64,000 nt of DNA, taken from NCBI GenBank assembly GCA_965261615.1, contig OZ253461.1, positions 313,223 through 377,222 on the forward strand, written 5' to 3'. The first letter of the stretch is position 1, and each line of letters starts with the position of its first letter. The stretch is from Alphaproteobacteria bacterium (lineage in GTDB: Bacteria > Pseudomonadota > Alphaproteobacteria > Bin98). A program made the translations under genes and the position numbers. The notes under the pieces are model-generated. The model was not told the origin of the DNA and did no database searches. It was given only the letters and a program-made list of their open reading frames with translations. Of the stretch, positions 1 to 64,000 are shown in pieces.

Positions 1-2151
1 TGTAGTATGCTGATAGCAGCGGGAGATCCTCCTATAGAGCTGCAGGAGCTACACCTTTCGTTATCGAGTAGTTCTGTCTGCCTGGTGGAGAGTGCTGTTA
101 AGGCTGACGCAGAGGTTGTGGAGTGCTTAAGCTCCTTAAAGGAACATATTCTGTTGGGAGATAGCGCGGTTGTGAGTGCGTATAATGATGCCTGCAAAAA
201 GGTGGGGCTCGACGCAGACTTGGGTGTGGTGGCAGGTCCTCAGAAAGGCTTGGTGCAGCCACTAGCGCTAGACTCCCCAACAGAAGTAGCCCTGTATTTA
301 TTCCATAATCAGAAAGCTTTAAACGTTTTGAATGCGTTAGAAGATACTTATAAGTGTGCTGACTTGGCTCACTTACGAGATGTTATTAAAGCGAGGGTAC
401 AGTCTTTTTTTGCAGAGCCAAAAAGCTTAAAACTCTTGATAGAGGAAAGCCAAAAGAGTGAGTGGGTCTGTCCGGAAGAGGTTGCGTTTGCGGTGGCGTA
501 TATGCCGTGGAAAAATCGTGAGCAGCTGCGTCTAGTTGACACGCGCTTGTACGCATTTGTTCATAAGAGTCATGCAAAGTATGAGGTCGGGGCTCGAGAG
601 GCTTTGGATCCCTTTTTTCAATTGGATGCTGAGATACAAAGAGAGGATAAGCATTTTTCTCGCGCTATTGGGCCATTTTTGGAGGCTGTTCGTCACGTAT
701 GTGGGAGTTTAGAGGGCTTTGATGATGTTCACTATTATGGAGAAGAGCAAAGCGAATCGGGTGTCTTTTACTTTCGGGAGGCAAGAGACGCTTTGATGCG
801 CTTATGCTCGAACAAAGATAAGAGAGTGCTACTTCCCATTTGCTTGGGGCAGAATAAATCAATAGAAGATATATTCCCTGCTTTATCATTAAGCATGGCC
901 AGCCTGCAGTTGTTTGTAAAAACATCAGAAGCTCTTTCGGTCATTGAAGTTTGGCAACGTGGTGATGAGCCTTACAAAAAGCTCATGGTGTACTGTTTGC
1001 ATTATGCCTACTGGCTAAAGATGTCTGCTCTCTTGCCAGAAAAGGACAGTGATAGTGCTGAGAAAAAGGTGATGTTGAGCCCCCTTTTTCAAAGAGGACT
1101 AAAAGTACAGGCTTTTTTGCAAAAGACGCTGGCTAGTAGTTGCGGCAATGTGGCTGAATACTTAAAGTGTTTTGTACAGTTTGGCTCTGTGGGTTGCTTG
1201 TGGTCTGCGTTGCACGAGGTTCTTCGTCATGAAGTTGGCTGTGCTGAGAGTGTTTGTTGTGCCGAGGCAAAAAAAGAGCTATGGTCTGAAATTACAGCTT
1301 CTAAAATAGACTGTCAACAAGTTTGGGGGCATCTGTCTTTTTTGGAACAAATGAACTGTAGTGCCGATCAGAAAAATCAGCTGGTGCATGAAGCAAGTGT
1401 TTGGCTGTCGCGCTCTATAGATCGCAAGATGTGCGCTATATGGAGCCAGGAGTGCGAGTGGGATAATCTTAGTGAAGGGGTCGTGTGTGAAATCGTTGAT
1501 TGCTTGAATAGGATGAGTTGTGCAAAAAGCGAAGAGATATACCGTTTGTGTGTGCAGTGTCTGCCTATAACTATGCACCTCTCTTTCAGGAAAGGTTGTG
1601 AGCAGTCTTTCTATGTGCAGTTGTGCCGAGGAGATGAAGCGTTAGTAACGTTAGCGAGTATGGTGGCTGTTCAAGGTAGAGCGTATGGCCCCGCGCGGTC
1701 CTATCTAGGTTACCTGCAGTGTGCGCATCCTTTTTTGGACTGGTGGGCGATGCTTGGAGATAAAGAGGTCTTAGCGTGTAGCAATGATCATAAAGAGGCT
1801 TTAGCGGATCTTATTTGGCATGCGATATTTAAGAGCTCTACACCTGACTTTCAGAGGGTATTGGGTGGCGTGCAAAAACTGATTACAATAAAGGGTAAAC
1901 ATGTTGTGCAGGGGCGCGTTTTGCGCGAAATAAGGGCGGTTTGTCGCCACATAGTCAGTATGGGTTCAGGCGCACAAGAGAGGGTGTATTACTTTGTATG
2001 TCAGGGAAATGACTTTGTGCCTCAAGGAGGGCTTAAAAAGCGTCTTGACTGTGCGCGTAATAATTTACAGCCAGGAGGTTTAGCGGCACTAGTCCCTCGT
2101 CGTTTGCAGCAAAGAAGAAACTCTGATGACTTGCGGTTATGGGGTAGGTAA
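1..2151 (+). CDS. Secreted cysteine-containing family protein, S1 subfamily; 5'-truncated by the window edge
   Basis: Open reading frame runs from the window start. Carries the 'WVCPEEVAFAVAY' N-domain motif and the C-module ('KLITIKGKHVVQGRVLREIRAVCRHIVSMGSG...YYFVCQG') shared with genes at 2261, 4448 and 60688. Confidence 0.8.
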   Translation, partial: CSMLIAAGDPPIELQELHLSLSSSSVCLVESAVKADAEVVECLSSLKEHILLGDSAVVSAYNDACKKVGLDADLGVVAGPQKGLVQPLALDSPTEVALYLFHNQKALNVLNALEDTYKCADLAHLRDVIKARVQSFFAEPKSLKLLIEESQKSEWVCPEEVAFAVAYMPWKNREQLRLVDTRLYAFVHKSHAKYEVGAREALDPFFQLDAEIQREDKHFSRAIGPFLEAVRHVCGSLEGFDDVHYYGEEQSESGVFYFREARDALMRLCSNKDKRVLLPICLGQNKSIEDIFPALSLSMASLQLFVKTSEALSVIEVWQRGDEPYKKLMVYCLHYAYWLKMSALLPEKDSDSAEKKVMLSPLFQRGLKVQAFLQKTLASSCGNVAEYLKCFVQFGSVGCLWSALHEVLRHEVGCAESVCCAEAKKELWSEITASKIDCQQVWGHLSFLEQMNCSADQKNQLVHEASVWLSRSIDRKMCAIWSQECEWDNLSEGVVCEIVDCLNRMSCAKSEEIYRLCVQCLPITMHLSFRKGCEQSFYVQLCRGDEALVTLASMVAVQGRAYGPARSYLGYLQCAHPFLDWWAMLGDKEVLACSNDHKEALADLIWHAIFKSSTPDFQRVLGGVQKLITIKGKHVVQGRVLREIRAVCRHIVSMGSGAQERVYYFVCQGNDFVPQGGLKKRLDCARNNLQPGGLAALVPRRLQQRRNSDDLRLWGR

Positions 2152-2260
2152 GCGAGAGCGCATAGCCGGGCTTACAGAAGGTGAGCGATTTTTAACCTAG
2201 ACACCAGATCTTAGAAGTGGTAAAATTTTCCATCGATGTAGAATGAAAGAGGGATAGTAA

Positions 2261-62958: not shown

Positions 62959-63092
62959 GCTCTAAGAAGGTTAACATTTACCGATGGTGAATTGAGTGCT
63001 GACTGGGGAGGGCTGGCGCGATGGTTAGAGCTTTATCTGTTTTCTTGCAGATTAGAGTTATTTAATGTAATATGTACGAAAGGTGGTTTGTG

Positions 63093-64000
63093 ATGAAATT
63101 TTTTATATGGTTTCTTGTCAGTGTAAGCTTACATTGTGCGATTCGTGAAATGGGCTCAGACAATGAGGGCGCCAGGTCTTTGGAGGAGGCTCCTCTATTG
63201 GTTAGCCGCTGTGAAGGGGTGGGAACAAGTTCCTTAGGAGACCTTAAAGAGGCGTATAACTGTTTGTACAATTTTCGACAATATATAGTAGACTGCGACA
63301 AAGAAGTATTGGACAAATATAATGAGATAGGGGCAGAGTGGGGTGCTGCTTTGACGGCATTTTGTGGCGAGCCTGTTTTTAGGCCCGTGCTTTGTGCAAA
63401 GAGTGACGATTTTGAACAGGTTACAGGAGAGAGATCTTCCAGTGCTGGTGAGAGCAGAAGCCTACCGGTACAGGTGCGTGCAGCGCTAGACCTCTTGAAC
63501 AATAAAAAAAGATTGAATGCGCTAAAAGTGAGCGGATGTATTCGCGCAAGTGACGAAAAAGATTTTGCAGGATGCTTGTCTAGTTTAAAAAGTACAATAG
63601 GGGCTCACATTTTTAAAAGTGAGTCACTGAGGACTTGTATGGAAAATGGTTTGACCGAAGGTTGGGTTTGGGAGGATGCTTTGGTGTGCGCGGCTGCGAG
63701 CTTATCTGAGGATGTGTTGGCTGAGTTAAAGTTTTGGGATTCAAAGTATTATGATTTCCTTACTGGGTGTATTAGAGAGTATGTGAGGCGTGTGGAGGAT
63801 GCATTAACCTTACTGGCACCATTGATGCAATTGCTCCAGGGTAAGGGCCCTGTAAGCCAGGCCGTGCAACATGCTTGTTCTAATGTAAATCGCCTTCGTG
63901 TATTTTTTGGTGAGAGCGCAAAGGAGTGGACAGGCGCTCCAAAAGCTTTTCTTTTAGCTGACTTTATGAAAGGATTCCAGGCACTGGAAGCTGCTCTTCT
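63093..64000 (+). CDS. Secreted family protein, S1 subfamily; 3'-truncated by the window edge
   Basis: RBS AAGGTGG (63079–63085) then ATG 63093 (MKFFIWFLVSVSLHCA). 'YNEIGAEWGAALTAFCGEPVFRPVLC', 'WVWEDALVCAAASL' and 'YYDFLTGC' parallel the 60688 gene. Open to the end of the window. Confidence 0.8.
   Translation, partial: MKFFIWFLVSVSLHCAIREMGSDNEGARSLEEAPLLVSRCEGVGTSSLGDLKEAYNCLYNFRQYIVDCDKEVLDKYNEIGAEWGAALTAFCGEPVFRPVLCAKSDDFEQVTGERSSSAGESRSLPVQVRAALDLLNNKKRLNALKVSGCIRASDEKDFAGCLSSLKSTIGAHIFKSESLRTCMENGLTEGWVWEDALVCAAASLSEDVLAELKFWDSKYYDFLTGCIREYVRRVEDALTLLAPLMQLLQGKGPVSQAVQHACSNVNRLRVFFGESAKEWTGAPKAFLLADFMKGFQALEAAL

Follow-up and report, generated by a model that had tools for sequence, protein, structure and literature searches.

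Which function would lead a bacterium to devote tens of kilobases to a single family of genes? This question is raised by a stretch of 64,000 nucleotides, here called the window, from the Alphaproteobacteria bacterium assembly GCA_965261615.1 (contig OZ253461.1, positions 313,223 to 377,222), in which paralogous genes follow each other in a long head-to-tail array. Here, the array proteins are described as a lineage-restricted family built of two domain types. We consider it somewhat probable that they represent a Sec-exported family of alpha-solenoid binding proteins, duplicated in tandem and altered by gene conversion, which probably serves the interaction with a host or partner organism.

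The array and its two domain types

An all-vs-all BLASTP comparison of every stop-to-stop open reading frame (ORF) of at least 90 amino acids (aa) on both strands (n = 116) placed 28 plus-strand ORFs in one connected family at E<1e-5. They are arranged head-to-tail at 1-42662 and 50688-63998, with a block of minus-strand ORFs separating the two parts, and total 17,624 aa or ~53 kb, which is 83% of the window. These ORFs correspond to 27 loci, of which 22 look intact, with ORFs 525-1226 aa long, and five are short, truncated or frameshifted. The pairwise amino acid identity ranges from 20 to 89%, with most paralogs at 20-45%, and profile hidden Markov models (HMMs) built locally from the family match only family ORFs among all 116. 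Under the standard code (table 11) the ORFs run uninterrupted, and the intergenic gaps go down to 10-33 bp. This bears out a preliminary description of the window, which had proposed a single co-oriented plus-strand superfamily and a complete lack of housekeeping genes. Indeed, neither tRNA genes nor Rfam matches were found in the window, and the Pfam and NCBIfam searches detected no housekeeping gene in it either.

The domain anatomy was determined with HMMs built iteratively from three segments of the protein encoded at 10813-13002, namely the N-domain (~209 residues), M (~208 residues) and C (~158 residues). The M and C HMMs matched each other's regions. When 16 M segments (alignment A4) and 18 C segments (A2) were aligned independently and compared by hhalign, the two profiles matched with a probability of 96.5% (E=7e-10, 117 columns), and both contain the core G...F...Y..YL...WW..L...(I)W...L.YL. 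The N-domain profile (A5) showed no relationship to the helical-domain profile. Therefore, a single domain, in diverged copies, underlies both the "NWW" and the "C" module of the preliminary description, and a further proposed module, FFxFVVQ(C/S)LP, corresponds to the first helix in C-type copies. The earlier count of four modules was thus too high: judged from their sequences, the array proteins have two domain types, an N-domain and a helical domain.

The general layout comprises a short signal peptide, a ~210-aa N-domain, which is absent, partial or present in up to three copies, and one to four copies of the ~160-aa helical domain. The HMM scan hereby upheld the proposal that the number of modules varies between members. 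The N-M-C architecture is found at 1-2151, 4448, 10813, 18341, 27471, 36740, 58328, 60688 and 63090-, next to N-N-M-C (7119), M-C only (2261) and three N-part plus M units followed by C (38982). In other members a partial N-domain precedes M-C (15241, 20470, 32112, 51138), an N-domain tail, a partial M and half an N-domain precede M-C (24887, 29663, 34135), or two C-type domains are present without N-domain (13162, 52927, 55240). The features of the array are as follows (N, N-domain; M, middle helical domain; C, C-type helical domain).

1-2151, plus strand: family member P0006, 732 aa at full length; N-M-C, 5' end outside the window
2261-4060, plus strand: family member P0024, 599 aa; signal peptide and M-C, without N-domain
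4448-6676, plus strand: family member P0001, 742 aa; canonical signal peptide-N-M-C
7119-10502, plus strand: family member P0011, 1127 aa; N-N-M-C, both N-domains complete
10813-13002, plus strand: family member P0004, 729 aa; canonical N-M-C, the protein modelled with AlphaFold2
13162-15096, plus strand: family member P0019, 644 aa; two C-type domains (internal duplication), without N-domain
15241-16953, plus strand: family member P0018, 570 aa; N-domain tail, then M-C
17110-17121, plus strand: G12 homopolymer in a 400-bp spacer, ~285 nt upstream of 17405-18307
17405-18307, plus strand: short member P0035, 300 aa; signal peptide, N-domain tail and C-terminal half of a C-type domain, internally deleted
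18341-20437, plus strand: family member P0005, 698 aa; N-M-C
20470-22047, plus strand: family member P0017, 525 aa; N-domain tail, then M-C; exact LSCVAA string
22221-22547, plus strand: 5' remnant of 108 aa, a pseudogene fragment; 78% identical to the N-terminus of the 34135-36702 protein
22567-24701, plus strand: split N-M-C gene (ORFs 22567-23037 and 23031-24701); 1-nt deletion near 23016 relative to paralogs
24887-27460, plus strand: family member, 857 aa; N-tail, partial M, half N, then M-C; 89% aa identity to 34135-36702
24811-28400, plus strand: duplicated tract of 3.6 kb, 95% DNA identity to 34059-37642; ends within gene 27471-29633
27471-29633, plus strand: family member, 720 aa; N-M-C, mosaic
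29663-32032, plus strand: family member P0014, 789 aa; architecture as in 24887-27460, ~50% identical to that protein
32112-33938, plus strand: family member P0013, 608 aa; half N-domain, then M-C
34135-36702, plus strand: family member, 855 aa; N-tail, partial M, half N, M-C; partner of 24887-27460
36740-38842, plus strand: family member P0003, 700 aa; N-M-C
38982-42662, plus strand: largest member P0009, 1226 aa; three successive N-part plus M units, then a C-type domain
50700-51104, plus strand: 3' remnant of 134 aa; C-terminal half of a C-type domain plus tail, adjoining the minus-strand block
51138-52886, plus strand: family member P0015, 582 aa; half N-domain, then M-C
52927-55146, plus strand: family member P0028, 739 aa as annotated; two C-type domains, without N-domain
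55240-57153, plus strand: family member P0021, 637 aa; two C-type domains, without N-domain
57244-58125, plus strand: truncated member P0029, 293 aa; signal peptide, half N-domain, part of M
58328-60559, plus strand: divergent member P0007, 743 aa; N-M plus a weakly matching C-type domain
60688-62958, plus strand: family member P0002, 756 aa; N-M-C
63090-64000, plus strand: family member P0010, 766 aa at full length; N-M-C, running past the window end, start approximate

Pseudogene fragments had been predicted within the array, and five were found: 22221-22547, the frameshifted 22567-24701, 50700-51104, 57244-58125 and 17405-18307. For P0028 the true start is probably near 53026, since its signal peptide starts at residue 34. 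The same gene carries in its N-terminal region an in-frame 15-bp unit repeated 3.1 times (53254-53299), which encodes an ADAKS-like peptide repeat.

Structurally, the 729-aa P0004 was modelled by AlphaFold2 from the eight-member alignment A1 as an all-helical protein essentially without beta strands (mean predicted local distance difference test score, pLDDT, 73; predicted template modelling score, pTM, 0.57). The AlphaFold model of the C-type domain, based on 18 sequences, displays ten helices with a pLDDT of 87.6 and a pTM of 0.82. These models suggest that the proteins belong to the broad class of helical-hairpin solenoids, without a specific structural relative.

The preliminary description recognized no named family in these proteins, and the profile searches agree with it. 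In Pfam no significant match was obtained for any family member tested or for five members outside the window, all sub-threshold matches being at chance level (E>=0.003). NCBIfam gave no match for ten window proteins, including five family members, and the profile search against PDB sequences nothing below E=0.4. Both the family and its two domains appear to be undescribed.

When 1.84 billion representative proteins were searched exhaustively with A1 by hmmsearch, 36 proteins were returned at E<=1e-3. Among these, 21 lie inside the window, two are full-length versions of the genes at the window edges and 11 are further members elsewhere on the same 1,465,401-bp contig. The last two are encoded side by side on one 4,578-bp metagenome contig of the European Nucleotide Archive (ERZ26695794, ctg139591; L001), a low-coverage contig with 46% guanine plus cytosine (G+C) and a skew of +0.25, which is the same strand signature as in the window. 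Here, the two family genes (609 and 652 aa) stand in tandem after a partial ORF, and one of the proteins is 46% identical to P0020. The members outside the window share the N/M/C architecture. Altogether, the family comprises at least about 38 loci and at least ~70 kb, which is ~5% of the 1.47-Mb contig, and this contig is likely a whole small genome. As far as the searched sequences reach, the family is confined to one lineage and is kept in tandem in at least one related organism.

Several other origins were considered for the array. The short signal peptides raised the possibility of a eukaryote or giant virus as the source, which was rejected in favour of a bacterial one on account of the Shine-Dalgarno-like motifs, the GTG and TTG start codons, the intergenic gaps of 10-30 bp and a replication-type strand skew that does not depend on gene orientation. 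A mollicute source was rejected because the ORFs run uninterrupted under table 11, and a firmicute source is unlikely given that T exceeds A on the leading strand. A prophage or plasmid origin was rejected, since PHROGs gave no match for four family members and tblastn none in a collection of 72,556 plasmids. With regard to function, arrays of polymorphic-toxin immunity genes were ruled out on the length of the proteins (500-1200 aa) and the presence of signal peptides.

Recombination and selection within the array

The preliminary description had inferred mosaic shuffling, and this was demonstrated directly. Self-BLASTN revealed that 24811-28400 and 34059-37642 are 95% identical over 3.6 kb, and that 23371-24704 and 28300-29636 are 82% identical. 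The 3.6-kb tract points to a recent duplication or gene conversion. In a sliding-window comparison, the first ~850 nt of gene 27471-29633 are 96-99.7% identical to the 36713 gene, while beyond this point the identity to the 36713 gene falls to ~62% and the 22567-24701 gene becomes the closer partner (~87%). This switch of partner is a clean recombination or gene-conversion breakpoint inside coding sequence. The minus-strand ORFs 25178-25474 and 34426-34722, which are conserved and antisense, are mere shadows of the duplicated DNA.

Divergence is unevenly distributed within the youngest pair (24887 and 34135), with near identity in codons 200-500 and 8-18% synonymous divergence in the flanks. 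The ratio of nonsynonymous to synonymous substitution rates (dN/dS, Nei-Gojobori) is 0.66 for this pair, 0.41-0.48 for intermediate pairs and 0.21-0.37 for old pairs. Thus, the values across paralogs, at 0.2-0.66, are all below 1, and the synonymous rate dS exceeds 1 between many pairs. This indicates a loose constraint on the proteins, without replacement changes being in excess overall.

These values bear on the possibility that the array is a non-functional or selfish amplification, a decaying segment under weak selection in which most copies are becoming pseudogenes. Five of the 27 loci are truncated, frameshifted or remnants, the ratio of nonsynonymous to synonymous differences per site (pN/pS) is ~1 in segments of the youngest duplicates, and small genomes with a strong mutational bias are often under relaxed selection. 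However, 22 long ORFs of 525-1226 aa have stayed open despite a dS above 1 between many pairs, and dN/dS is 0.21-0.48 for the older pairs. Furthermore, core residues of the helical domain recur in 35-47 of ~50 copies, AlphaFold predicts a confident fold for the C-type domain, and tandem members are kept in a related organism, the closest compared pair being 46% identical. Taken together, this makes mere decay very improbable indeed.

The exchange of sequence between copies is also relevant for antigenic or phase variation, which was the interpretation of the preliminary description. In this view, the members would be surface antigens of a contingency repertoire, and the cell would escape host immunity by switching their expression, either through slipped-strand mispairing or through gene conversion into an expressed copy. 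The large, co-oriented and diverse repertoire fits this idea, as does the demonstrated exchange; pseudogene fragments could serve as donors, pN/pS is near 1 in the youngest duplicates, and one G12 tract lies upstream of a member.

The defining feature of contingency loci is a simple-sequence repeat in the promoter or the 5' coding region. In the array, however, a homopolymer is nearby at only one of 27 loci, and no member has a 5' coding repeat tract. The G12 tract is the only homopolymer of at least 10 bases in the window, and the 3 x 15 bp at 53254-53299 are the only in-gene tandem repeat in family members. One intergenic tract and one in-frame repeat across 27 loci do not sustain the slippage-prone tracts that had been described. 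The G12 tract itself may be phase-variable or meaningless; no equivalent is present upstream of other members.

Cassette-type antigenic variation, on the other hand, needs one expression site and promoterless, truncated silent copies. Here, 22 of the 27 loci are full-length, each with its own start codon and signal peptide as well as a Shine-Dalgarno-like sequence, and the array has no single expression site with silent cassettes. Moreover, at 20-45% identity most paralogs are too diverged for efficient homologous conversion, and the overall dN/dS is below 1. Transmembrane segments, beta-barrels and cell-wall anchors were not seen in the proteins, and a lipobox-like cysteine is present in about half of the members. 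Of the proposed contingency signature, gene conversion alone is present, and antigenic variation is considered unlikely.

Export signals, composition and probable function

Since the family would act outside the cytoplasm, its N-termini are of special relevance. They were compared in 37 fetched proteins, comprising 36 family members and the non-family orphan P0037. An uncharged run of at least 9 and mostly 12-18 residues is found in 32 of the 37; it is preceded by 0-6 residues and usually ends with [V/M/F]-A-[A/S], a site of the signal-peptidase-I type that is general to the family. An internal segment with a hydropathy of 1.6 over 19 residues was found in two of the 37 proteins, both marginal. 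The signal-like N-terminus that had been credited to the members is thus borne out, but not the LSCVAA motif, whose exact string is present in only a few of them. At this position about half of the N-termini carry a cysteine ([L/G/W]-[S/G]-C), and the others G, S, A or V. The family looks like soluble Sec substrates cleaved by signal peptidase I; a subset may be lipidated, which would not be a family-wide property.

With regard to expression, Shine-Dalgarno-like sequences (GGAG/GAGG/AAGGGG) are located 5-10 nt upstream of most starts, and several start codons are GTG or TTG. Good sigma-70-like sites lie upstream of some genes, e.g., at 2198-2226, 4401-4429 and 10606-10634. However, their number within 1-20000 is not enriched (30 observed vs. 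27 +/- 5.5 in shuffled sequence). Since such sites are no commoner than in shuffles, a promoter of its own for each gene is not established. Thus, of the ribosome binding site and -10 element that most members had been thought to possess, the former is visible and the latter is not established.

The composition of the proteins is influenced by the DNA strand. The window has a G+C content of 45%, and its GC skew is +0.19 to +0.34 along the full length, about +0.28 overall. This strand asymmetry is unusually strong: at third codon positions, the skew of the plus-strand family genes (+0.40) contrasts with that of the minus-strand genes (-0.32). These opposite values indicate that the skew follows the DNA strand and not transcription. 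The plus strand, with more T than A, is probably the leading strand. Proteins encoded on the plus strand are richer in Gly, Val, Trp, Cys, Met and Arg, those on the minus strand in Pro, Thr, His and Gln. In the family, Cys (3.1%) and Trp (2.2%) are elevated, and part of this is mutational, because the strand bias enriches G/T-rich codons in plus-strand genes.

The residues of the helical domain differ in their conservation. Y75 is kept in 47 of 48 copies and W116 in 35 of 49, and the core G50, Y75, L79, L92 and W116 is conserved in 35-47 of ~50 copies. Individual cysteine columns are conserved in only about 50-83% of the copies, and in the C-type copy the cysteine of VQ(C/S)LP alternates with serine. 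Given this partial conservation and the alternation, the disulfide-stabilised fold proposed for the whole family is not established; it is conceivable for the N-domain, in which Cys and Trp are semi-conserved and whose profile has cysteine columns at C27, C117, C128, C134, C161 and C191.

A function within the own cell envelope would be in line with these signals. According to this explanation, the proteins are periplasmic or surface-located scaffolds, chaperones, envelope-assembly factors or nutrient-capture binders of the bacterium itself. Helical-repeat periplasmic proteins are common, the signal peptides are of the Sec type, and no further secretion signal was recognised. Where the hydrophobic stretch ends in a cysteine, as in about half of the members, the sequence agrees with a permissive lipobox, and these proteins could in part be lipoproteins. 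However, housekeeping envelope proteins are normally single-copy, taxon-wide and detectable by Pfam or NCBIfam, whereas here ~40 copies are present in one lineage. Evolution is also fast, with a dN/dS of 0.4-0.66 in younger pairs, and the pseudogenised copies and reshuffled domains speak for a repertoire that is dispensable and diversifying. A cell-autonomous role is therefore judged rather unlikely.

The explanation that we favour is that the array encodes soluble all-alpha proteins, exported by the Sec pathway, of a multigene family specific to its lineage. This family would have grown on the leading strand as genes were duplicated in tandem and domains were duplicated within them, while copies continued to undergo unequal recombination or gene conversion and occasionally decayed. 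Every intact copy would be expressed and exported on its own, and the solenoid domains would offer protein- or ligand-binding surfaces outside the cytoplasm. The repertoire would then have diversified to cover many targets, most plausibly molecules of a host or partner, in analogy to host-dependent bacteria that enlarge families of helical-repeat effectors or surface proteins. Host targets are suggested by four features: the replicon is small, a large part of it is invested in the family, and the proteins evolve fast and are restricted to one lineage. The organism may have a host-associated lifestyle.

Several observations weigh against this explanation. No homology match points to any function. 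Foldseek returned no match at E<=1e-3, and the resemblances in fold are generic. Export is suggested by hydrophobic N-termini, a dedicated secretion system was not seen within the window, and in a diderm cell, proteins with no more than a Sec signal would stay in the periplasm. Furthermore, a pN/pS of ~1 in some segments of young copies is what near-neutral turnover would give.

In small genomes, an investment of this size usually marks the molecules of a key external interaction. A more far-reaching version, in which the proteins are a new class of exported HEAT/TOG-like solenoid arrays engaging host proteins (e.g., cytoskeletal or trafficking proteins) and continuously reshuffled by gene conversion among expressed paralogs, is decidedly unlikely; if true, the array would represent a new host-interaction or immune-evasion system and define an uncharacterised lineage with a reduced genome. 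Nevertheless, the family offers a natural example of gene and domain shuffling in progress with a dated mosaic breakpoint, candidate effectors or surface proteins and, according to the models, a new helical domain that can be folded with confidence.

The minus-strand block and comparison with known systems

The gap of the main array contains a second, unrelated family of four ~290-330-aa proteins on the minus strand (42946-43935, 43974-44843, 48784-49656 and 49669-50574), which are related to each other with BLASTP E-values down to 1e-51 and have signal-like N-terminal sequences. Their high content of Pro, Thr, His and Gln is what lagging-strand genes of this genome would be expected to give. 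Inside gene 42946-43935, a 69-bp tandem repeat (43689-43865, 2.6 copies, 95% matching) encodes ATQPWA(K/N)EQ(W/G)ANE... units near the N-terminus of the protein; this largest tandem repeat of the window lies outside the main family. Between these genes, two orphan proteins with hydrophobic N-termini are encoded, one of 758 aa (45007-47283, minus strand) and one of 308 aa (47436-48362, plus strand) with 4.8% Cys. Pfam gave nothing significant in five of six non-family proteins, and neither the second family nor the two orphans had matches in Pfam, NCBIfam or PHROGs. A search of 5.8 billion clusters with the 758-aa orphan returned only the protein itself.

The right edge of the block adjoins the 5'-truncated remnant 50700-51104, which suggests that the block was inserted or inverted into a continuous array, cutting a member. 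A 5' half matching this remnant was not found on the left side of the block.

Among known protein classes, the ~160-aa domain of the array may, on the basis of the models, be likened to a generic HEAT/ARM-like helical-hairpin stack, with a weak resemblance to TOG domains. The HEAT, Arm and CLASP_N signatures of Pfam were unmatched even at E<=1 in eight members.

With chlamydial Pmp, Borrelia vls, Anaplasma msp2/p44 and Neisseria pilS, families of small host-dependent genomes, the array shares that it is multi-copy, clustered and variable and that recombination occurs between copies. Some Pmp genes also carry poly-G tracts. However, Pmp are beta-helix autotransporters, whereas the array proteins are predicted to be all-alpha and have no Pfam match. 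The vls, msp2 and pilS systems consist of one expression site and truncated silent copies, in contrast to the mostly complete genes of the array; the segmental gene conversion between their copies is found in the array, too.

The Hcp proteins of Helicobacter are Sec-exported, cysteine-containing alpha/alpha-repeat paralogs of a host-adapted bacterium, which are thought to bind host or envelope ligands. The array resembles them in being composed of paralogous cysteine-containing helical-repeat proteins with Sec-type signals. Hcp proteins, however, have a strict disulfide per 36-aa repeat and are few per genome and outside a single array. In the array proteins Sel1 (PF08238) is unmatched, the cysteines are 50-83% conserved and the repeat unit is a ~160-aa domain.

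The families IchFam1-25 of Candidatus Ichthyocystis, an intracellular bacterium with a reduced genome, are lineage-specific and mostly organised in co-oriented tandem arrays; many are predicted to be exported or effector-like, and they are mostly coiled-coil or membrane proteins, which were screened as type III/type IV effectors (PMC4943182). Both systems lack known homologues and show tandem duplication with diversification, occasional strand switches and interspersed other families. There is no sequence relationship, the G+C content is 35-38% in Ichthyocystis vs. 45% here, a difference on which Ichthyocystis was also rejected as the source of the window, and the array family consists of multi-domain proteins with a Sec signal and a predicted alpha-solenoid fold, so that the resemblance is one in kind only. 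Rather than a new mechanistic category, the array would thus represent a further case of a category already known from Candidatus Ichthyocystis, the lineage-specific tandem families of exported proteins.

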